Virus record (IMG/VR): IMGVR_UViG_2657244931_000007
DNA length: 9,212 bases
Strand: one strand, 5' to 3'
From: a virus
Lineage: Duplodnaviria; Heunggongvirae; Uroviricota; Caudoviricetes
Of the stretch, positions 145-9,204 are shown in pieces; the first letter of the stretch is position 1; each line of letters opens with the position of its first letter. Both the position numbers and the translations under genes were made by a program. The notes under the pieces were generated by a model, which saw nothing but the letters and a program-made list of their open reading frames with translations, did not search any database and was not told where the DNA came from.

Positions 145-235
145 ATATCCCTTCCCTTATGGCTAGATTGCGAGAGGTGCTTAACGCGATTTTCAGCGCC
201 CCCCGATCTGGAAAATCCAGAATCCCCAAATATCA

Positions 236-254
236 AGGAGGCATTACGCCTCCT
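236..254. other. Inverted repeat AGGAGGC-N5-GCCTCCT overlapping the recombinase stop codon
   Basis: Perfect 7-bp arms at 236..242 and 248..254; no adjacent U-tract on the minus-strand transcript, so not a classic terminator. Confidence 0.4.
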
Positions 255-783
255 CTTCTTCCTTCTTAATTCGCTGTACCGTTGAAGGAGCAACATTAAA
301 GCTCTCGGCGGTTTTACGCACTGACACGCCAGCGGAAAGGGCTTTCTTTATACCTTCTCTATCTACTGCTTTTCCATTACCACGCTTTGTAGGATTGACG
401 GCTTGCGCTTCTCGTTTACGTTCTAGCATCAGTTCACGTTCACACGTTGCAACTGCCGACAACATCGTAAGCATCATCTTTCCCATCGCGCTTGTAATGT
501 CTGCAATGATCCCTTCTTTGTGAAATCGAACAATCACACCTCGATTATTAAGTTGTTCAACTAAAGCAAGGATGTCTAAGGTGTTACGTCCTAAACGGTC
601 GAGAGAGTGCACGTGTAAGGTGTCGCCTTCTCTCAGATAGGCTAAACACGCTTGTAAGCCTGGGCGGTTAGTGTCTTTACCAGACAGCTTATCTTCAAAG
701 ACTTTATCGAGAGTTACTCCTGCAAGCTGGCGATCAGTGTTCTGATCTACAGTGCTCACACGCTTATAACCGATATTGCTCAT
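244..783 (-). CDS. Small serine recombinase (resolvase / DNA invertase family), 179 aa
   Basis: N-terminus MSNIGYKRVSTVDQ has the catalytic serine at position 10 in the conserved Y-x-R-V-S-T context; VFEDKLSGKDTNRPGL and HVHSLDRLGRN match Hin/Gin/Tn3-resolvase catalytic-domain motifs; C-terminal helix-turn-helix (VSVRKTAESFNVAPSTVQRI). SD-like AAGGGG (complement of 790..795) sits about 6 nt upstream of the ATG at 783. Confidence 0.88.
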   Translation of the reverse strand: MSNIGYKRVSTVDQNTDRQLAGVTLDKVFEDKLSGKDTNRPGLQACLAYLREGDTLHVHSLDRLGRNTLDILALVEQLNNRGVIVRFHKEGIIADITSAMGKMMLTMLSAVATCERELMLERKREAQAVNPTKRGNGKAVDREGIKKALSAGVSVRKTAESFNVAPSTVQRIKKEEEEA

Positions 784-858: not shown

Positions 859-910
859 GCCTTATAGGTACGGAATATTACACGATTTAGCTGTATTCAT
901 TTGGTATGCC
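835..910. repeat. Direct repeats GTATTCATTTGGT (837..849 and 893..905) just upstream of the recombinase gene; candidate recombinase site (res-like) or operator
   Basis: 13-bp identical direct repeats 56 bp apart, overlapping the predicted recombinase promoter region. Confidence 0.4.
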
Positions 911-1352
911 TAATGGATACACAGGGGGATAGATTAAATGGTGTTCTGTTTATACAGGTTTATTTGTTAGATCAACAATTTGGCATTTCTAAACAGATGT
1001 TTGAACGTTGCCAAATGTATTGACAACACAAGAAAAGGGCTTGCTATGCCACGCATTACACGAAATAAGGCTGTAAAAACAAAATAAATTTTAAAATTTG
1101 CACAAACAAGAAAACTCGTTCAGAAACAAGCAGAACAATTTTTAGCCAACAATTTCTGATGGTGCTCTGTAAGCCGCATTACACAAGGCTTTGCGAAAGT
1201 GATGTAAAAGTGAAGAAAGTTAACATTGCACTTTTAAGCTACTTTTCATTGAATTTTTAGTATGGAATTACACAGGAATAAGTTAGGGATATTCTATGAT
1301 TTACACAGGGAATATAGGGGGATTATGGCACACACATAGAAAGGCATTACAC
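877..1352 (+). repeat. Dispersed array of an ATTACAC(A/G) motif, same orientation (copies at 877, 1055, 1178, 1267, 1299(TTTACAC), 1346; partial ATACACAGG at 917)
   Basis: At least 6 copies in about 480 bp, irregular spacing, often extended to cATTACACagg; candidate protein-binding iterons. Confidence 0.55.
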
Positions 1353-1510
1353 AGAGTGCTATGTGACAAATGGATGTAACGAGAGGTTACATTCAGCTAT
1401 CTGAAATGCTCTCTGTAAGAAAGTAGGTAGTAACGGTAGGTCACTGTGAGCTACCCCCACAGAATTCTGTTACCCCTATCAAGTCTGATACCCGATAAGT
1501 ATAAATAACA

Positions 1511-1611
1511 CCTAGGAAATGATTTCCGATCTATTTAGGAAGTAACCTAGGAAGTGGTTTCCTACCTACTTAGGAAATGAGTTCCTACCTACCTAGGAAA
1601 TGAGTTCCACC
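1511..1611. repeat. Iteron cluster: four copies of a 13-bp palindromic core GGAA(A/G)TG(A/G)(T/G)TTCC with shared CCTA...TACC flanks
   Basis: Cores at 1515..1527 (perfect palindrome GGAAATGATTTCC), 1550..1562, 1573..1585, 1596..1608; the last three centres are 23 bp apart. Confidence 0.7.
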
Positions 1612-1672
1612 AATACTATAATTAAATACTATAATTAAATAATATAAATAATATTCTTTATACTATATATAT
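1612..1672. repeat. Very AT-rich tract with tandem ATACTATAATTAA x2 (1613..1625, 1626..1638); candidate DNA-unwinding element next to the iterons
   Basis: Almost pure A/T directly 3' of the iteron cluster. Confidence 0.5.
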
Positions 1673-1680
1673 GATCTTTT

Positions 1681-1860
1681 GCCTTCCGGCGTTAGCTTCA
1701 CTCTCTGGCAAGCAGCCTTACTCCGCTACCTTTCGGGCTTCGTGGCTGGCCCGTTCCGCTCACACCGAAAGCAAAGCGTTACTTTCTTCGTGTAACTATC
1801 GTTGGCGGTAACGCCCACGAAGAAATACTATTGCGCTGTGCGCAGAAGAGTAATCACCTA
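1681..1860. other. GC-rich island with nested stem-loops; candidate structured non-coding RNA or structured DNA site (strand unknown)
   Basis: Clearly GC-richer than the flanks. 9-bp stem TTCTTCGTG (1784..1792) / CACGAAGAA (1816..1824) encloses GGCG-GTAA-CGCC (1804..1815; GNRA-type tetraloop); second stem CTTTCGG (1730..1736) / CCGAAAG (1765..1771). Confidence 0.35.
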
Positions 1861-1898
1861 ACCAATCATACTGATTGCTACCAATCATACTGATTGCT
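1861..1898. repeat. Perfect tandem duplication of a 19-bp unit ACCAATCATACTGATTGCT, each with internal inverted repeat CAATCA-TAC-TGATTG; candidate operator for a dimeric DNA-binding protein
   Basis: Units at 1861..1879 and 1880..1898 are identical; 6-bp arms with 3-bp spacer inside each. Confidence 0.7.
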
Positions 1899-1923
1899 TA
1901 CGTGTTAACTCTCTCTAACTCTT

Positions 1924-2081
1924 AATTCCACTTCCTACATTTAATAACTCTCGTTATTCTCTGTAGTTGTGTAATTACTCGAAGAGAGAGCGGCTAAAGC
2001 TCAATTACACTCTGCTTTCCTCGTGTAATTTCACTAAGCCTCAATACAATTCCACTTCCTACATTCTGTAGTCGTGTAATT
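1924..2081. repeat. Duplicated module AATTCCACTTCCTACATT + CTGTAG(T/C)(T/C)GTGTAATT; copy 1 is split by a 19-bp hairpin-forming insertion
   Basis: 18-mer identical at 1924..1941 and 2048..2065; 16-mer at 1961..1976 and 2066..2081 (one mismatch); 1942..1960 TAATAACTCTCGTTATTCT is present only in copy 1 and contains AATAAC/GTTATT inverted arms. GTGTAAT (reverse complement of ATTACAC) at 1969, 2023, 2074 and 1790 (GTGTAAC); forward AATTACAC at 2003. Confidence 0.65.
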
Positions 2082-2691: not shown

Positions 2692-2753
2692 ATGAAAAAG
2701 ATCAGATTTTTTTATGAAAAGGTATTGACAAATGTTTCTTTATATGTAATAAT
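2692..2753 (+). promoter_or_regulatory. Early-operon promoter: -35 TTGACA (2725..2730), 17-bp spacer, extended -10 TGtAATAAT (2745..2753); direct repeats ATGAAAA(A/G)G (2692..2700, 2714..2722) upstream and AGGTATT (2720..2726, 2754..2760) bracketing the core
   Basis: Perfect -35 hexamer, 17-bp spacing, TG-extended -10, about 110 bp upstream of the first plus-strand gene. Confidence 0.55.
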
Positions 2754-2862: not shown

Positions 2863-3051
2863 ATGAAATGGTTTACATCGGAGCACGTCATTCAGGCATT
2901 TAAAAAAGGTGAGCTTACACGACATCAAGTAGTAATGAATCGTAATATGGCAAGGAGTCGAGGTTATCCAGAGCGTGAAAAATGTTTTGACGATGCACTG
3001 AAAATTATTGATGAACTGCGTAAAGCTGAGAAAGAAGCAGAGAAAAAATAA
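2863..3051 (+). CDS. Hypothetical small basic protein, 62 aa (first gene of early operon)
   Basis: RBS AAGGAG 5 nt upstream of the ATG; downstream gene follows with its own RBS. Confidence 0.7.
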   Translation: MKWFTSEHVIQAFKKGELTRHQVVMNRNMARSRGYPEREKCFDDALKIIDELRKAEKEAEKK

Positions 3052-3075: not shown

Positions 3076-3264
3076 ATGAATATTAATTTTGATTCTGCAA
3101 CTTATAACGCGTTGTTAAATCGCGCAAAGGCAGAAGGGAAATCAATTCCAAAACTTGTTAATGAACTACTAATTACAGTCCTTACAAAGGAGGAACTAAA
3201 TGATCAAAAATATCAAAACAATTGCCGAAGCGAAAGCCAAATGTCTAAATCAGAAAGATGGTAA
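3076..3264 (+). CDS. Ribbon-helix-helix (Arc/Mnt/CopG-like) DNA-binding protein, 62 aa; putative transcriptional repressor
   Basis: MNINFDSATYNALLNRAKAEGKSIPKLVNELLITVL fits a beta-strand / helix / helix RHH pattern; RBS AAGGAG at 3062..3067; 3' end overlaps the next gene by 65 nt. Confidence 0.65.
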   Translation: MNINFDSATYNALLNRAKAEGKSIPKLVNELLITVLTKEELNDQKYQNNCRSESQMSKSERW

Positions 3265-3931
3265 ACAAAAATATGTAGTTGTTGAGCAATGGTTGAAGAT
3301 GTTTAAAAAATGGTATTCACCATCTGGTAATGAATACACCGCTACACTGCCAGCCGTTGAAATCTATAGCTATATAGCTGGATTCAATGAACAAGGGCAA
3401 GAATGTTACGCTACTCAAAAAACATTAGCTAATATTGGAATGGTTAGTGATCGCCAGGTTCGCAATATTATAAATATGTTTGTTGATATGGGAGTTCTTT
3501 CTGTAGAGGCACGGGACGGTCAAACATCACTCTATAAAGCATTACCATTTACAGATGCACATATTACTCCCCCAGGAGAATCATCACTCTCTGATCTTTC
3601 TGAGGCAGAAGAAGCACAGGAACAACCTAAAGGCCATAAACAGCCTTCTTTTGATGTTCTTGATGATTGGGATGCGCCTTTGCCGTGGGAGACGGAAGAA
3701 ACACCTGTTTCATCAAGTGAAAAGGTAGCTAATGATAATGAGGAGGATGTGTTAGAGAATTTTGCCTCTCTTATCATCCAGGAGAAACACACACGAACAG
3801 GAGGAGCATCATTTATTGAGTTTGCAAATTCACTAGCTTGTAGATACGGGCTAAAACGACCAAATGGTATTGAGGCATATTTTTCTAAGCATTACCCAAA
3901 TGTATATGACGACTTTGATATTCCATTTTAA
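3200..3931 (+). CDS. Winged-helix-like DNA-binding protein with acidic C-terminal region, 243 aa; candidate replication initiator or regulator
   Basis: Strong RBS AAGGAGG (3187..3193), 6-nt spacing; segment YATQKTLANIGMVSDRQVRNIINMFVDMGVLSVEA resembles a wHTH; C-terminal half is acidic and low-complexity (SEAEEAQEQ ... DDWDAPLPWETEE). Confidence 0.75.
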   Translation: MIKNIKTIAEAKAKCLNQKDGKQKYVVVEQWLKMFKKWYSPSGNEYTATLPAVEIYSYIAGFNEQGQECYATQKTLANIGMVSDRQVRNIINMFVDMGVLSVEARDGQTSLYKALPFTDAHITPPGESSLSDLSEAEEAQEQPKGHKQPSFDVLDDWDAPLPWETEETPVSSSEKVANDNEEDVLENFASLIIQEKHTRTGGASFIEFANSLACRYGLKRPNGIEAYFSKHYPNVYDDFDIPF

Positions 3932-3942
3932 TAAGGAGGGTT

Positions 3943-4221
3943 ATGATTCAATATTTAGTAAAAAATCAAGTAGACAGAATTCAGTGTAATGACACAGGAA
4001 AACGCATCTACGAGACACTTGCTTACCTCTATAAAGGAAAGCCAACACCGCTAAAATATAGCGATGTGTTACATCGAGCAGGGTGCTCTGAAGCTGGTTT
4101 AAAATTCTGGCTGAAACAGCTATCAAATTTCGGTGTTATAGAGATTAAAGAATTATCTTTCTCTACATTCAATCTCAAAAGACTAGATAAAGAAATAGAA
4201 TTCATCTATTCCACTCTCTAA
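3943..4221 (+). CDS. Small wHTH-like protein, 92 aa
   Basis: RBS AAGGAGG immediately upstream; YSDVLHRAGCSEAGLKFWLKQLSNFGVIEIKE has the same helix-turn-helix / wing pattern as the preceding protein. Confidence 0.65.
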   Translation: MIQYLVKNQVDRIQCNDTGKRIYETLAYLYKGKPTPLKYSDVLHRAGCSEAGLKFWLKQLSNFGVIEIKELSFSTFNLKRLDKEIEFIYSTL

Positions 4222-4262
4222 AATCTCTCTATGTAATTAAAATATAAAAGGAAAACATTATT

Positions 4263-4379
4263 ATGATAGTAGCTATGTATTGGTTATTGTTCTTTCTCAC
4301 GTTAGAAGCATATTTCGGGGTGTTTTCCTTTAAAAGAAAAGGAAAAATAAATGGCAAAAAGAAAAAACAACGTTGTTAA
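4263..4379 (+). CDS. Possible small hydrophobic peptide, 38 aa (MIVAMYWLLFFLTLEAYFGVFSFKRKGKINGKKKKQRC); single predicted transmembrane helix plus basic tail
   Basis: Not in the ORF track (too short); SD-like AAAGGA at 4247..4252, 10 nt upstream of the ATG; overlaps the start of the 4351 gene in another frame. Confidence 0.25.
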   Translation: MIVAMYWLLFFLTLEAYFGVFSFKRKGKINGKKKKQRC

Positions 4380-4761
4380 GAAAATCGGTGATTCAGCTTC
4401 TCTTCTAAGTAAACCTAAATCTATTCTAAGACGCAAAGACTTTAAAGAGCTAGTTACGCTCACCAAGCATAATAGCGCCCCTGGCGAATGGAAAACAGAG
4501 ATCATAGAACATTCTCCCTCTGTGCCTTGTGGAGATGAATTTAACGCCTTACAAGAAATCTTATCTTCAACACCTGGCGTATTCTGGAAACCTAGAAAAA
4601 GAAAAGAGTATATTGTTGATAGCTCTGATTTACGCAAATACCAGATTTTAGGATTTGAAGACTATAACCACTACGTTGGTTATCTCGCCACCAATGGCCT
4701 AAATAATTTAGTTCCAGACTTTCAAATTTTAGATAATGCTGATCACTATGGAGACTTTTAA
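4351..4761 (+). CDS. Hypothetical protein, 136 aa, basic N-terminus
   Basis: Same-strand ORF in operon context; weak SD AAAGGA about 7 nt upstream. Confidence 0.65.
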   Translation: MAKRKNNVVKKIGDSASLLSKPKSILRRKDFKELVTLTKHNSAPGEWKTEIIEHSPSVPCGDEFNALQEILSSTPGVFWKPRKRKEYIVDSSDLRKYQILGFEDYNHYVGYLATNGLNNLVPDFQILDNADHYGDF

Positions 4762-4762
4762 T

Positions 4763-5098
4763 ATGAACAAAAACACGTATGACACAATTTACTCACTAAT
4801 TAATTATTATGAGGATGATTACCTCCTGCCTTTAAACCGCGCTGAACTTGAAGCATACAAAGAAAACACGCCAGCGGCACTAAATGAGGCGTTTAAACAC
4901 TGGGATTTAGCTGTGAATGCCTTTGAGCACCTCTCTAAGCGTGTAGAGATGCTCTGTAAGCGTGAGAACGCATACCTGACCTGCTGTCAGATATGGGAGC
5001 TATCAAATTGGATAGAAGGTATTGAATCGGACGTTCGCTATGTAGGAGACGGACTTGTTGAACTAGCTCAACGCTTAGGCGCTATCACAGAAGAATAA
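4763..5098 (+). CDS. Hypothetical protein, 111 aa (start chosen at the ATG at 4763 rather than the ORF-track start at 4736)
   Basis: GGAG at 4749..4752 gives proper spacing to the ATG at 4763 and removes the overlap with the upstream gene; the ATGs at 4736 and 4748 have no SD. Confidence 0.65.
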   Translation: MNKNTYDTIYSLINYYEDDYLLPLNRAELEAYKENTPAALNEAFKHWDLAVNAFEHLSKRVEMLCKRENAYLTCCQIWELSNWIEGIESDVRYVGDGLVELAQRLGAITEE

Positions 5099-5127: not shown

Positions 5128-5156
5128 TTGACATTTCATATATTGTATGTTAATAT
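5128..5156 (+). promoter_or_regulatory. Late-operon promoter: -35 TTGACA (5128..5133), 17-bp spacer, TG-extended -10 TAATAT (5151..5156)
   Basis: Same architecture as the early promoter at 2725. Confidence 0.55.
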
Positions 5157-5162
5157 AATTAT

Positions 5163-5380
5163 ATAGGGGTGATTATTTTTCCTTTATTGGTTCGATATTA
5201 AAAATTCTTCTTGTCGTTAAAGGGGAGTAAAATCTCCGCTCCCCGCTTCTCCTCCTCCTTAAGTGTCATTATTACCTCTTTTTTCCTTTGTTATGCATAC
5301 ATCTTGGAGTATGCATAACATAGGGTAATTACATAGGTACAAGTTAATAAAAGGCGGCTTTAAATGCTGCCTTTTATTTT
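5163..5380 (+). ncRNA. Candidate ~215-nt leader or small RNA from the late promoter to the intrinsic terminator
   Basis: Contains hairpin GGGGAG/CTCCCC (5222..5244), CU-rich anti-SD-like tract CTTCTCCTCCTCCTT (5246..5260), perfect 11-bp inverted repeat GTTATGCATAC-N8-GTATGCATAAC (5290..5319), and ends at the terminator 5352..5380; no convincing ORF inside. Confidence 0.35.
5352..5380 (+). terminator. Rho-independent terminator (stem AGGCGGC / GCUGCCU with one G-U pair, loop UUUAAAU, then UUUUAUUUU)
   Basis: 7-bp stem at 5352..5358 / 5366..5372, followed by the T-run 5373..5380. Confidence 0.55.
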
Positions 5381-5442: not shown

Positions 5443-5655
5443 ATGTTGTTCTTAAATGATAAAGAGCAAATCATCAAGTATAAAGATGAAATGCTGAAAA
5501 TTAATCCACAAATTACCGAAATGGTAGCTAAATACGCTGGGTGTTCTGTCGAGGAAGTAGAAAGATGTGTTGAAAAATATTTTTCTCCTTCTTCTCCGTC
5601 TACACCTTCCCTTAATGAATTAATCAAATTAAAAGCTAAGGAGATTACTAAATGA
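5443..5655 (+). CDS. Hypothetical protein, 70 aa, first gene of the structural operon
   Basis: ATGA start/stop overlap with the next gene suggests translational coupling; weak SD AAGG upstream. Confidence 0.6.
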   Translation: MLFLNDKEQIIKYKDEMLKINPQITEMVAKYAGCSVEEVERCVEKYFSPSSPSTPSLNELIKLKAKEITK

Positions 5656-6023
5656 TTATTGATTTAGACACTCTTTTTCCAAGTCGAAAGACGTTTACAG
5701 ATCTGGTGGCTTATTGTACTGATCCGTTTGCCTCTGTAGAAAACAAGGTTTTTGCTTCTCTTCCTGCTGATGTTGAATGCGGAGACTTGATCACCAGCAC
5801 TGGCGCTAAATATGAATCAGGAGATGATATCTATGTTGTTATGAGTGAATTTGTAACTGCTGATTCAAATAAAACAGTTAACGTGCTTCGTGCTAATGCC
5901 GGACTCGTTTGCATCAAAGCTGATGCCCTGAATGCCGAAGGCGCTGTAAAAGAAGCTGCTATTGCAGCTCTCGCTGCTAAAGGCTTCCAGCTTGAAGGCT
6001 TTAATACGGTTTTCACTTCTTAA
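5652..6023 (+). CDS. Hypothetical protein, 123 aa; decoration-protein-like by position and size only
   Basis: RBS AAGGAG at 5638..5643; immediately upstream of the capsid-like gene; no sequence resemblance to a known decoration protein was recognised. Confidence 0.7.
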   Translation: MIIDLDTLFPSRKTFTDLVAYCTDPFASVENKVFASLPADVECGDLITSTGAKYESGDDIYVVMSEFVTADSNKTVNVLRANAGLVCIKADALNAEGAVKEAAIAALAAKGFQLEGFNTVFTS

Positions 6024-6041
6024 TAAAAGGAATAATAATAA

Positions 6042-7070
6042 ATGATTCTAGGTAATGATTACGTTGATTTAGCTCCTCTGTTCTCTGCGCATAGCACTAG
6101 AAATTATCTGCTTTCTACTCTTGATTTTACGGATTCTGTAGGGGTTACATCTCATAAAGTAGCTGTTTCCCAGCTTGTCGAAAGCAACGAATCTCTCTTT
6201 AACAAAGAGACAAGCCGTTTTAGTTCTGAACACAATGTTACTAAGCGAGAACAAGGTAAAGAATGGCTGATCGAAATCCCTTACTTCCTGCGTGAGGATG
6301 TTATCCGTCCCTCTGATGTTCAAGGCAAACGTAAGTCTGGCACTGATTTTCAGGAAACACTCACTGATATTTATGCGGAATATATCGCTAAACACCACGT
6401 AGCGTATCAGCGCACTAAAGAGAGCGTGCTGGCGGCTTCTTTGTTCTCTGGCAAAACTTACACGCCTAAAACTGATGATGTGTTAATTGAGTGGGGCAAG
6501 CTGTTTAACGTATCAGCTATGAAAGCCACTGTGAACGCCTCCAGCACTGACACCACGAAGATTTTTAAAGAATTTGATCAGATTGCTACTGACATTATCG
6601 AAAAAGCACAAAGCCAGGCGGCTGCTGTAGAGCGTATTGTTGTTTTCTGTAAGCCGGAAGCCTTCTCTGCAATTCGATTCTCTGCTGGTATGGCAAACGC
6701 ATTCCAGTACGTAAGCCCACTGGAAGAAGGGAACGTTGTGTATCAGCGTCGTGACCTGCTACCAGGAGTGACAGCGTTCACTATTCCAGGAACTAACATT
6801 GATGTTGTTAAACTGGTAGATCCGCTACACCTGGCACATATGACCGCAGACGCTGTAGCTGTGCCTAAATTCGCTAAAGGCTCTAACGTATATCAGAACA
6901 TCTACGGGGCTGCTTCCAGCACCTTTGAACTGATCAATGCCGATCCTACTGAGGTGTACAGCTATAGCTATGAATCTTCTCGTGGTGATGCTGTGAACGT
7001 TGTTACAGAGAATAGCCAGATGGTTGTAAACCACGGTGTAGGCTTCTCCGTTCAAATCACTGTTAAATAA
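6042..7070 (+). CDS. Putative phage major capsid protein, 342 aa (possibly lambda gpE-like; tentative)
   Basis: Size, beta-rich composition, and a strong intrinsic terminator directly downstream, as often seen after major capsid genes. Short segments (LAASLFSGKTYTPK, DLLPGVTAFTIPG) loosely recall lambda gpE from memory; not verified. Confidence 0.45.
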   Translation: MILGNDYVDLAPLFSAHSTRNYLLSTLDFTDSVGVTSHKVAVSQLVESNESLFNKETSRFSSEHNVTKREQGKEWLIEIPYFLREDVIRPSDVQGKRKSGTDFQETLTDIYAEYIAKHHVAYQRTKESVLAASLFSGKTYTPKTDDVLIEWGKLFNVSAMKATVNASSTDTTKIFKEFDQIATDIIEKAQSQAAAVERIVVFCKPEAFSAIRFSAGMANAFQYVSPLEEGNVVYQRRDLLPGVTAFTIPGTNIDVVKLVDPLHLAHMTADAVAVPKFAKGSNVYQNIYGAASSTFELINADPTEVYSYSYESSRGDAVNVVTENSQMVVNHGVGFSVQITVK

Positions 7071-7089
7071 TATTTTAACGTGTAATAGA

Positions 7090-7123
7090 GGCGTGGCGTG
7101 TATTCACGCTTCGCCTTTTTTTT
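7090..7123 (+). terminator. Strong rho-independent terminator after the capsid-like gene
   Basis: GC-rich stem GGCGTGGCGTG / CACGCTTCGCC (7090..7115) with TATT loop, followed by 8 Ts (7116..7123) and more T-rich sequence. Confidence 0.75.
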
Positions 7124-7156
7124 ATTTATTTTTAAATTTTGAGAGGTGATTAAAAT

Positions 7157-7360
7157 ATGGAAGTGATTTTGAAATCAAAAAATGGTGTACACGTACATTT
7201 AGATGCTAATGATTCTAGAGGCTTGTTAAATCTGAAATATCTATGTTCTCTCTTAGATGTTCCATATGAAGGCGTAAAAGCCCGTATGTTCAGACTAAAC
7301 GAGAGTATTGATCAGGCTCTACACCATTTCTTAAGCAAAGAAGGTGATAAAAATGATTAA
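7157..7360 (+). CDS. Hypothetical protein, 67 aa
   Basis: RBS GAGAGGTGA at 7141..7149; only about 34 bp after the terminator, so likely expressed by read-through. Confidence 0.6.
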   Translation: MEVILKSKNGVHVHLDANDSRGLLNLKYLCSLLDVPYEGVKARMFRLNESIDQALHHFLSKEGDKND

Positions 7361-7374
7361 TAAGGGGATTTTAA

Positions 7375-9204
7375 ATGTTAGAAATTAACACTTCTAAAAT
7401 TAAGAACACAGTAACATTTAGTGTAGATAAAGACAGCTTGAAAAAAGCGAAAGACTCTATTACAGGCTTAAAGGAATTCGCAGAAAACATCAAGCCAGCT
7501 AAATTAAGATTTGATAATGTCACTAAAGGCTATAAGAAAGCACAAAGTGAAGTAGATAAGATTGCTCAACAGAAAGCCAAAACAGAAAAGCAGAATCAAA
7601 GAGCACAAGCTGCCGCAGCAAGAGCACAGGCAAGGCAACAGGCACAAATAGCAGCACGTAAAGAGAAAGCAGAATTAAAACTGTTAGACGTTGGATCAAG
7701 CATTAGTGCAATGCACCGTCTCTCTGTAGCGGAACAATACAAAGCTATTGCACAGGCTAGAGAGATAGCAAAACAATACGAACAAGGCGCTATCAGCTTG
7801 GCGCGTATGAATAGCCAGATGAAACGCCTACAACAACAACAACGTAAGATTAATGGCAACCGAAAAGCACAATTTGCCCCCGTTAAAGGAGGATCAGGGA
7901 ATTCCGCCACTATGGGCGCTCTGTTATTTGGAGGCGCTACGGCTGCTGCTGGCGTGATGGCTGTTAGTAAAACCTCTGAATTTATGGCTAATAGCTTTGC
8001 GAATGCTGAAACACAAGGAGAATTAATCCAACGTGCAAGGCTTGGCGGTGTAGACGTTAACCAGATGTACAACATTACAGAATGGGCGTATAAAAACGGC
8101 GTTGATTCTATGATGGGTGATCAAGGGGCTAGGAAATACCTGGATCAGATGAAAGATGTTAGGGAACGTGCCGCAAAATCCTACAGTGAAGCTGAATTGG
8201 TGAAAGACAAGAAAGGAAAATCTGAATGGAAAGGCGGTGATAACGCTATTAATGAACTTCTAAACATCGGTGTTATTAACAAAAGCGACCTTAAAAAATT
8301 TGCTGATAATCCGGCTGGATTAATTTCTAAGGCTGTTAATGGAATGATGAAAAAAGGGTTTTCAGACTCCCAAATTGGACAACGTTTAGAAGACCTGGGC
8401 GATGATTTGATGCTTACATCAAAATATTGGCAACGTTCCGTTAAAGATGTACAAGAAAGTATTAATCAGCAAAAAGCCTCTGGAAAATGGCTAACAGAAA
8501 CACAGCAAGACTCTATTGTTAAATTCAGAGAACTAAACAGACAGCTTTCACAGCTTTCTGATGCAAGACAAGTAGCATTCGTAGACGGGTTTATGAAATC
8601 TCTTGATCCAAAAGTAACGGAAGAGTTTATGAAAAACCTTTCTAATCTCACTCCGTATTTTACGAAGCTTGGCGAAGCGTCTGGAAGTCTTTTTGAAGCT
8701 ATTATGAAGGTTGTAAACTGGTTTAATCGTAATGATGATAAGACAGATGCTATTCAGAAAAATATGGGAGATGCACCGCCATTAAGCAATGAAGGGATGA
8801 AACAGAATCTTTCTAATCTCGTTCCTGATCAATATAAAGGCGCTGGCACTGCAACAACTACACCTGATAATAGTCATTCTCTCTTTAACACGATTAAGGG
8901 ATGGCTTTTCGATGATAATGCTTCTTCTGTGTCAGATGTAAAAATGTCAGTCAGCGAAGCACCGATAACCAATCTCAAACAGGGTGCTTTAAATAATCTT
9001 GCAATGACAACTCCGGCTTATAATTTATCTCCTGTGTTTAATCTGAATCCTACATTTGAAGTGGTAACAGAAGTGCCTCTTACTATTAATTCTGACACGT
9101 CAAGATTAAGCGATTATGTGGATTTTACAGCGAGAGCAAGTCGGGATAGCTTCTTGAAATCATTAACATTAACCAGCTTATCAGGACAATCTAACGGCGG
9201 GTAA
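7375..9204 (+). CDS. Large virion-associated-type protein, 609 aa: coiled-coil Ala/Gln-rich N-terminus and a Gly/Ala-rich hydrophobic segment; tape-measure-like or internal/ejection protein (function uncertain)
   Basis: RBS AAGGGGA at 7361..7367; AQAAAARAQARQQAQIAARKEKAELK coiled-coil region; hydrophobic TMGALLFGGATAAAGVMAVS at about residues 180..200; ORF reaches the end of the window. Confidence 0.8.
   Translation: MLEINTSKIKNTVTFSVDKDSLKKAKDSITGLKEFAENIKPAKLRFDNVTKGYKKAQSEVDKIAQQKAKTEKQNQRAQAAAARAQARQQAQIAARKEKAELKLLDVGSSISAMHRLSVAEQYKAIAQAREIAKQYEQGAISLARMNSQMKRLQQQQRKINGNRKAQFAPVKGGSGNSATMGALLFGGATAAAGVMAVSKTSEFMANSFANAETQGELIQRARLGGVDVNQMYNITEWAYKNGVDSMMGDQGARKYLDQMKDVRERAAKSYSEAELVKDKKGKSEWKGGDNAINELLNIGVINKSDLKKFADNPAGLISKAVNGMMKKGFSDSQIGQRLEDLGDDLMLTSKYWQRSVKDVQESINQQKASGKWLTETQQDSIVKFRELNRQLSQLSDARQVAFVDGFMKSLDPKVTEEFMKNLSNLTPYFTKLGEASGSLFEAIMKVVNWFNRNDDKTDAIQKNMGDAPPLSNEGMKQNLSNLVPDQYKGAGTATTTPDNSHSLFNTIKGWLFDDNASSVSDVKMSVSEAPITNLKQGALNNLAMTTPAYNLSPVFNLNPTFEVVTEVPLTINSDTSRLSDYVDFTARASRDSFLKSLTLTSLSGQSNGG

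Follow-up and report, generated by a model that had tools for sequence, protein, structure and literature searches.

Several families of phage satellites bear on the locus described here. P4, the satellite of P2, packs its 11.6 kb of DNA in a T=4 capsid and carries Psu, a decoration-type protein. SaPI1, the satellite of 80alpha, redirects capsid size by means of CpmB, a small scaffold-like protein that shares its C-terminus with the scaffold of the helper. Both use the capsid protein of a temperate helper. PLE, a chromosomal island of Vibrio cholerae with its own Rep and an iteron origin, has the large virulent myophage ICP1 as its helper and remodels the ICP1 coat protein to T=4 with the scaffold TcaP. 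The cf-PICIs of Enterobacteriaceae are integrative, encode their own HK97-fold capsid protein and need a helper for the rest of the virion; in work attributed to Alqurainy et al. from 2023 they are said to carry a complete head and packaging set and to take only tails from temperate helpers. MiniFlayer and MulchRoom of Streptomyces are described as having helpers of virulent or lytic type and encoding part of their own encapsidation machinery (PMC10690885). Here we analyse IMG/VR record IMGVR_UViG_2657244931_000007 (Caudoviricetes), a stretch of 9,212 nucleotides referred to as the window, which belongs to a 12.4-kb integrative element of Escherichia coli, hereafter the island. The island encodes diverged relatives of head and tail-core proteins of phage phi92, and we consider it, with a probability of roughly two in three, to be a phage satellite that depends on phi92-like myophages (Stephanstirmvirinae: Justusliebigvirus and Phapecoctavirus) as its helpers.

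The window shares 97.7% identity with part of the E. coli chromosome NZ_CP062871 (locus L001), where this copy is located between the thrW gene for tRNA-Thr and the pao genes. The tRNA-Thr gene ends in a 28-nt sequence that recurs as an imperfect direct repeat 12,434 bp downstream, beside an integrase gene. These repeats are the att sites that bound a 12,434-bp element, of which the window represents about three quarters. In the NZ_CP062871 copy the element ends 2.3 kb past the window, and only two further genes are found there, one for a 237-aa Dit-like tube-initiator protein and one, on the opposite strand, for a tyrosine integrase. No open reading frame (ORF) of the window matched terminase, portal or protease in Pfam or PHROGs, and the same databases yielded no portal, protease, terminase, connector, sheath, tube or baseplate-wedge gene in the whole 12.4 kb, with the flanks taken from NZ_CP062871. 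A preliminary description of the window, made from its sequence alone, had noted that terminase, portal and protease genes were missing from view, and this holds for the entire element. It had left open whether the window is part of a satellite-like or otherwise unusual element or of a non-canonical gene order whose remainder lies outside. The latter is excluded by the end of the element 2.3 kb downstream; the flank contains the tube initiator, the integrase and the att end, and no standard head-gene cluster. The evidence favours the satellite-like alternative. At the sequence level, the island appears to provide its own integration and replication functions (att repeats, tyrosine integrase, an HTH_36 Rep-like protein, four iterons and an AT-rich stretch), and genes essential for a virion are missing across its 12.4 kb.

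All five ORFs that had been proposed for the structural block were placed correctly (Table 1). The 342-aa product, previously called a capsid protein only tentatively, matches the Pfam family Phage_cap_E (PF03864) with an E-value of 2.4e-14 and a score of 53.6 bits, well over the curated cutoff of 22.9; the alignment joins residues 18-341 to positions 13-329 of the 329-position profile. It also matches phrog_29, major head protein. Among solved capsid proteins it is similar to 9zbi_A (E 1.2e-11) and to phi92 gp124 (21uy_N; E 4.8e-6, residues 5-334), with 22% identity to gp124 over the full length. The full-length family match and the structural database matches bear out the earlier call, and we regard the prediction of an HK97-fold major capsid protein as confirmed by these profile comparisons.

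The 123-aa protein encoded directly upstream of the capsid gene had been proposed for a structural check against decoration folds. A first AlphaFold2 model, built on a shallow alignment of 21 sequences, reached a pLDDT of only 38.5; after the alignment had been deepened with distant relatives from a representative search, the model reached a pLDDT of 83.9 and a pTM of 0.75. The seven best Foldseek matches of this confident model in the PDB are all phage decoration proteins, including those of Sf14 (9c2d), Bas63 (9ncf_J), YSD1 (6xgq_a) and P21 (SHP, 1td3), the best with a TM-score of about 0.6 over the full length. Comparison of the 123-aa family with the family of phi92 gp123 by hhalign gave an E-value of 0.0018 over 99 collinear columns, and the two families have the C-terminal motif FTS in common. 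A transitive link was also found, since the hidden Markov model of the 123-aa family reaches the proteins P0107 and P0108, which match phrog_2680 ("head decoration", the PHROG of gp123). The relationship to gp123 is a distant one, because plain BLASTP found no similarity between the two proteins. The profile comparison and the model together confirm that the 123-aa protein is a cement or decoration protein with a gpD-like (beta-tulip) fold.

For the 70-aa protein at the start of the block the evidence is suggestive only. Residues 7-70 align with residues 302-368 of the 371-residue phi92 scaffold gp122 with a Smith-Waterman score of 55 (p about 0.001 in shuffles), and hhalign gave an E-value of 0.031 over the last 15 columns. 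The motif S-x-x-(D/E)-L-I-x-x-K-A-x-x-I-K, which matches the scaffold C-termini of phi92 and of ESCO5, is clear at the C-terminus in three island variants and looser in two more. The protein might represent a truncated scaffold of the helper type, which we consider a lead and not a result. The resemblance of its C-terminus to gp122 is of the same kind as that of SaPI1 CpmB to the scaffold of its helper.

The 609-aa ORF likewise stands, and its earlier label as a coiled-coil protein turned out to be incomplete. It matches phrog_16051 (E 3.9e-54) and the 659-aa phi92 gp134 (PDB chain 21vq_V, E 2.2e-38), and we assign it by these matches as a tape measure protein. In tblastn searches it matched 134 phage records, almost all of them phi92-like. 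The first 87 nt of its gene are 86% identical to the phi92 gene, and the gene is located directly upstream of the gp135 homologue in NZ_CP062871, the position expected for a tape measure gene. RefSeq names the island protein 'flotillin family protein' in some genomes. The gp135 homologue itself, the 237-aa protein beyond the window, is 61% identical to gp135 (PDB chain 21vq_N, E 3e-79). The roles of the phi92 virion proteins have been established by cryo-electron microscopy, and gp135 was identified as the hexameric tail-tube initiator (PMC13450770). This differs from the phi92 RefSeq record NC_023693 (25700-26410 of our locus L002), where gp135 is labelled 'tail fiber protein'. The closest phage relatives of the island tube initiator are found in Justusliebigvirus (61%) and Phapecoctavirus (57%), with only 28% identity to rV5-like phages. 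The host labels of some records look doubtful, since the 'Campylobacter phage' records A150, C3, A145 and A142 are near-identical to E. coli phages of the phi92-like or rV5-like groups.

The island structural genes follow the phi92 order, with decoration, capsid and terminator, then tape measure and tube initiator, and the phi92 head and tail-core genes (gp122-gp124 and gp134-gp135) are homologous to and syntenic with them. In phi92 these two blocks are separated by ten genes for neck, sheath, tube and chaperone functions, which are missing in the island. Identity to phi92 has the low value given above in the capsid protein, the tape measure protein reaches about 32-53% and the tube initiator 61%, and the scaffold of 371 aa is matched by a scaffold-like counterpart of about 70 aa. 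Whereas phi92 is a virulent phage of about 148 kb, the island genes are found inside a 12.4-kb integrative replicon. From homology and gene order we conclude that the structural genes are diverged homologues of virion genes of phi92-like virulent myophages (Stephanstirmvirinae, about 148 kb). In phi92 itself, gp121 (L002 15193-15672), which is labelled 'DNA methyltransferase', occupies the position of the prohead protease of phage DrSchubert.

A further connection to phi92 was found near attL, where 40 bp of non-coding sequence, oriented away from every island gene, are identical to phi92. The left direct terminal repeat of phi92 is annotated as ending at position 343, and the 40 bp span this boundary. 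Phage Antha shares the conserved core of the sequence, as does Klebsiella phage phi1_175008 (record positions 290-359), and the site was found in 14 island loci of the thrW type. As a terminase that makes exact terminal repeats must act at such a junction, we read the site as a copied signal and a candidate for packaging or cleavage. A copy of the other boundary of the terminal repeat was sought as well and gave matches at chance level only.

Exchange of genes between the island family and phages is evident from the phage side. Justusliebigvirus phage muut (MN850573) carries an 863-bp stretch that is a mosaic of three island alleles, with identities of 99.2%, 85.7% and 97.3%; genes 153 and 154 are encoded there. 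The protein muut_153 (L004 1911-2078) is 100% identical to the product of a small island gene upstream of Rep in 10 island loci, and bas60_0101 of phage PaulScherrer (L005 2515-2700) is 98% identical to the product of the 62-aa ORF at 3076-3264 of the window. These phages may use regulators stolen from the satellite. The adjacent gene muut_154 (L004 2130-3128) encodes 332 aa in which two winged-helix domains of Rep type precede an endonuclease domain at the C-terminus. The first of them, residues 1-133, has 89% identity to the Rep protein of island L031, the second, residues 125-214, has 93% identity to the Rep protein of the window (compare window 3295-3555), and residues 234-330 match an endonuclease family (phrog_681, E 2.2e-18) as well as Pfam MUG113 (1.8e-4) and T5orf172 (0.03). 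A satellite Rep domain fused to a nuclease of the GIY-YIG/T5orf172 type is the architecture of Odn, the chimeric nuclease of ICP1, which consists of a copy of the N-domain of PLE RepA and a T5orf172 nuclease and cuts the PLE origin at the iterons (PMC8263062). With its two copied domains, muut_154 looks like a two-headed version of Odn that would be aimed at two types of island replicon.

Among 5,426 complete E. coli genomes, 760 match some part of the window and 265 contain at least 80% of it. Divergent copies with the same architecture are present at thrW and at a tRNA-Gly site. Citrobacter, Kluyvera and Scandinavium also have the core module, and Klebsiella, Leclercia and Enterobacter have proteins closely homologous to that of 123 aa. 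The modules are mosaic: the capsid protein is 74-76% identical in two variants and 19% in the island of an O104:H4 strain, identity in the tape measure protein is either 63% or 25%, depending on the variants compared, and the tube initiator is absent from some. The O104:H4 FWSEC0009 island (L007 8026-9455) shares the backbone, with 96% identity in the N-terminal region of Rep and 63% in the tape measure protein. Identity to the window drops to 25% in its decoration gene and to 19% in its capsid gene, the product of which RefSeq labels 'hypothetical'. At least two capsid lineages coexist within one island family. In five further loci (L008, L027, L033, L034 and L036) the tape measure protein is 25-28% identical to that of the window and no tube-initiator gene was detected; these islands may be adapted to a different helper lineage. 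ORFs were intact in nearly all of 20 loci sampled, and pairwise dN/dS ranged from 0.07 to 0.14 in the capsid gene and from 0.07 to 0.21 in the tape measure gene. The cement gene gave values between 0.19 and 0.34, except for 0.57 in one low-divergence allele. The island genes are under purifying selection and belong to a maintained mobile family, not to debris.

The expression signals of the structural block are listed in Table 1. The strong terminator that had been noticed after the capsid gene is well supported, and an equivalent hairpin is present 3' of the capsid gene in all island variants examined and also in phages phi92 and DrSchubert. That it sets the stoichiometry, as had been suggested, is plausible. 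The capsid-type gene had also been taken to be driven from its own promoter. A sigma70-like match does lie upstream of the block, with two strong hairpins between it and the first gene; since promoter-like matches are not enriched in the window (19 found, 25.6 expected from shuffles), it is to be read as a consensus match only. Of the two leader hairpins, the first (5284-5325) has a folding energy of -21.3 kcal/mol (z -6.4) and the second, terminator-like and followed by a U-run (5346-5378), one of -18.3 kcal/mol (z -3.5). In L006, L007, L008 and L027, too, the gene of about 70 aa that opens the structural block is closely preceded by a terminator-like hairpin, which keeps its position across variants but not its sequence. 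This conserved placement suggests that the late operon might be controlled by antitermination. The motif CTCCTAAG upstream of the structural genes was considered in this context and dropped, as it showed no enrichment near phi92 late genes in the regions compared.

Table 1. Features of the 9,212-nt window, with strand and the evidence on which each assignment is based.
Position	Strand	Feature	Evidence
168..207	-	40-bp copy of the phi92 terminal-repeat/unique-sequence junction, candidate terminase recognition/cleavage site	100% identical to phi92 318-357
244..783	-	Small serine recombinase, resolvase/invertase type	Pfam Resolvase E 7.5e-34; phrog_125 DNA invertase E 7.7e-55
877..2080	.	Gene-poor region with 9 ATTACAC copies, presumed regulatory/replication	Motif counts
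1511..1670	+	Four 17-nt iterons (CCTAGGAARTGRKTTCC) followed by AT-rich stretch, candidate replication origin	Four matches, 0 expected
2725..2753	+	Sigma70-like promoter match, early/regulatory genes	TTGACA-17-AATAAT, 11/12 positions, with TG
2863..3051	+	62-aa protein	Conserved across variants
3076..3264	+	62-aa small regulator-like protein	Weak match to phrog_11622, transcriptional regulator family
3200..3931	+	243-aa Rep-like winged-helix protein, candidate iteron-binding initiator	Pfam HTH_36; PHROG replication-initiation families
3943..5098	+	Three genes (92, 136 and 120 aa)	Conservation; dN/dS 0.05-0.44
5128..5156	+	Sigma70-like promoter match, structural operon	TTGACA-17-TAATAT, 10/12 positions, extended TG
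5284..5378	+	Leader with two hairpins, the second terminator-like (13-bp stem then UUUUAUUUU)	Folding energies
5443..5655	+	70-aa protein, candidate small internal scaffold or capsid-size factor	Resembles C-terminal ~67 residues of helper scaffold
5652..6023	+	123-aa predicted cement/decoration protein, gpD-like fold, phi92 gp123 homologue	AlphaFold2, Foldseek, hhalign
6042..7070	+	342-aa predicted HK97-fold major capsid protein, Phage_cap_E family	Pfam, PHROGs and PDB matches
7088..7112	+	Intrinsic terminator 3' of capsid gene	Hairpin and T-run, -20.6 kcal/mol, z -4.8
7157..7360	+	67-aa conserved small protein, possible helix-turn-helix DNA-binding	Position conserved
7375..9204	+	609-aa predicted tape measure protein, homologue of phi92 gp134 (659 aa)	phrog_16051, PDB 21vq_V

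The remaining features concern replication, regulation and accessory functions. ATTACAC occurs 11 times in the window compared to 1.34 expected (none of 200 shuffles reached 11), and a tandem 19-mer is found at 1849-1886, within a 2-kb stretch that contains no convincing ORF. This stretch, which includes the iterons upstream of the Rep-like gene, probably harbours the origin and regulatory sites of the island. No Rfam family matched the ATTACAC and iteron region, and scans of the window and the phage locus with Rfam and for tRNA gave nothing above noise, for which reason a 46-bp element shared with phages is not a known RNA. The 62-aa protein encoded at 2863-3051 is 68-83% identical in L006, L007 and L008; the second 62-aa ORF, for which the RefSeq copy has no annotation, shares 65 nt with the beginning of the Rep-like ORF. 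The 92-aa and 136-aa genes are kept in all variants, and the 92-, 136- and 120-aa proteins matched no family in Pfam, PHROGs, PADLOC or NCBIfam. A gene of about 65 aa is found at the position of the 67-aa gene in every variant examined, with 25-52% identity where similarity is detectable. Sub-threshold helix-turn-helix hints were all that was obtained for this protein, which is possibly a DNA-binding protein with candidate roles in packaging specificity, excision or regulation. That it might be a homologue of phi92 gp133, a chaperone frameshift product, was rejected because BLASTP showed no similarity. The serine recombinase gene is accessory, since it is missing from islands of the L028 type; its 32% identity over 81 aa to the phi92 invertase gp053 was dismissed as generic family similarity with no sign of exchange. 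We further observed a motif, TTACAGAGCGTTTTA/GAGCGTTTTAGA, at 2439-2464 and 2600-2625, upstream of the early genes, and once more in inverted orientation at L001 24947-24988, between the tube-initiator gene and the integrase. Possibly a single regulator uses it as an operator at the two ends of the transcribed block.

If the island is indeed a satellite of phi92-like phages, its life cycle could be pictured as follows. Infection by the helper would relieve the terminator in the operon leader, and the island would excise and replicate from its iteron origin. The island capsid, cement and mini-scaffold proteins would build a shell on the helper portal, the helper terminase would recognise the copied junction and package island DNA, and the island tape measure protein and tube initiator would seed a tail for which tube, sheath and baseplate come from the helper, as would the portal, terminase and neck. 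The shell would probably be small, T=3 or T=4, and sized for 12.4 kb instead of 148 kb, by analogy with P4 and PLE. Scaling with T^1.5 from the phi92 head, in which 148.6 kb are packed at T=13 (PMC13450770), leads to a capacity of about 16 kb at T=3 and of about 25 kb at T=4. The tail might be shorter by about 2 of 24 rings if its length scales linearly with the tape measure protein (609 compared to 659 aa). Diversion or poisoning of helper assembly is likely part of the effect. We are evenly divided on the full proposal, namely that the island represents a previously undescribed family of Enterobacteriaceae satellites that forms chimeric virions from its own shell and tail core and the remainder of the helper, is packaged by means of the 40-bp copy, and is countered by helpers with a two-headed, origin-directed nuclease and copied regulators.

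Several points weigh against the satellite interpretation. Induction, packaging and transfer by a helper, as well as helper-dependent excision and replication, are inferred, and their support is indirect, coming from the copied terminal-repeat junction and from the phage genes that are built of island DNA. The small capsid is argued from the 12.4-kb genome size and from analogy only. With only 22% identity between the island capsid protein and that of the helper, the fit of the island shell to the helper portal and protease is in question, and no rationale is evident for a satellite to bring its own tape measure protein and tube initiator. Statistical support for the 70-aa protein as a scaffold relative is weak, as the p-value of about 0.001 was obtained in one variant and values of 0.05-0.8 in others. 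The 40-bp site could be a regulatory or replication site in phi92 rather than a packaging site, and the divergent variants L007, L008 and L027 do not carry it in exact form. No record with the island was found in phage collections, a search of IMG/VR returned only prophage calls from isolate genomes, and the island-size metagenomic and assembly contigs inspected, including Logan contigs of 12-13 kb, all represent the integrated form. The 12-13 kb contigs are flanked by tRNA or chromosomal sequence or end in the att core, their termini do not overlap, and none starts at the 40-bp site; they were rejected as free forms and are uninformative on excision or packaging. Two matches in plasmid collections were also discarded, one being a chromosome filed as a plasmid and the other a fragment disrupted by an insertion sequence.

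The main rival explanation is that the island is a non-transducing anti-phage island that uses diverged copies of capsid, cement, tape measure and tube-initiator proteins as dominant-negative decoys and spreads by other means. It has no portal or terminase, no packaged or circular form was found in public collections, and its proteins are homologues of helper parts that oligomerise, namely a capsid protein of 775 copies, a trimeric tape measure protein and a hexameric tube initiator (PMC13450770). Phages moreover carry an apparent counter-measure. However, the scaffold-like, cement and capsid genes form a coherent kit for building a shell that is conserved together across genera, which is not what a single poison subunit would look like, and an exact copy of the terminal-repeat junction would have no obvious role in a decoy. 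The integrase, the several tRNA sites, the mosaic alleles and the recent exchange of DNA with phages argue for a mobile island whose DNA is replicated in infected cells. No known defence family was matched either: the ten non-virion proteins gave zero matches in PADLOC-DB at E <= 0.01, and NCBIfam gave no informative matches for the island proteins. We consider a pure decoy function unlikely, keeping in mind that interference and spread as a satellite may well coexist and are not mutually exclusive. An explanation as a decaying prophage or phi92-like remnant, or as the middle of an ordinary head-gene cluster, can appeal to a chromosomal set of phage structural genes that lacks packaging genes. 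It is at odds with att repeats 12.4 kb apart, with an architecture that divergent copies share at two tRNA sites and across four genera, with strong purifying selection on intact ORFs, and with the nature of phi92-like phages, which are virulent, about 148 kb in size and devoid of an integrase. A capsid protein only 22% identical to that of phi92 indicates an old separate lineage rather than recent debris. The flanks and the dN/dS values effectively refute this explanation, to which we attach hardly any credence.

It is also improbable, and more so than a decoy island, that the island is an unannotated member or close variant of a described family, be it cf-PICI, classical PICI, P4-like element or PLE. 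The resemblance is real in so far as the island is integrated near a tRNA gene and combines genes for an integrase, a Rep-like protein and a capsid protein, as the cf-PICIs do, and the literature covered comprised open-access papers and bioRxiv only. The hallmarks of cf-PICIs are nevertheless absent from the 12.4 kb, since no island ORF matched portal, prohead protease, head-tail connectors or small terminase in Pfam, PHROGs or NCBIfam; the island has in their place two tail-core genes, and its relatives are virulent myophages. P4 is comparable to the island in genome size, but searches of PHROGs and Pfam revealed no Sid, Psu, Delta, Eps/AlpA or alpha primase-helicase. Classical PICIs and SaPIs are set apart by the lack of any match to a PICI primase, TerS or Rpp, and by a capsid protein that the island, unlike P4 and SaPI1, encodes itself. 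No sequence homology of island proteins to Sid, Psu or CpmAB was detected in Pfam or PHROGs. PLE resembles the island as a chromosomal island associated with a large virulent myophage, with its own Rep and an iteron origin, and also in having a helper with a chimeric nuclease of the same architecture as muut_154. PLE, in contrast, has no capsid, cement, tape measure or tube-initiator protein of its own, while the island has all four, and it resides in another host, integrates by a large serine recombinase and shows no sequence similarity to the island that we could find. MiniFlayer and MulchRoom belong to an unrelated host phylum, and they are likened to the island by description only. In the full texts of open-access papers and bioRxiv (subscription journals were not covered) neither a satellite of Stephanstirmvirinae or Vequintavirinae nor any account of the island was encountered. 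To our knowledge, tail genes for a tape measure protein and a tube initiator are part of no definition of cf-PICI, PICI, P4-like elements or PLE, and we know of no satellite that supplies its own capsid shell and tail core without portal and terminase.

If the full proposal holds, the island and its helpers would be a second, independent case of an arms race of the ICP1-PLE type, in E. coli, and the chimeric nuclease borne by a phage suggests that counter-defence of the Odn type is general and not a peculiarity of ICP1. The range of satellite strategies would be widened by one that lies between stealing everything (P4, SaPI, PLE) and stealing only tails (cf-PICI). Phi92-like and related phages are common on E. 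coli and Klebsiella and are considered for therapy. The island is present in about 5-14% of complete E. coli genomes, and if it acts as a satellite that diverts their assembly or blocks it, host range and the outcome of therapy would be affected. The island would also offer a genetically tractable system in E. coli for the determination of capsid size and tail length and for packaging at terminal repeats.

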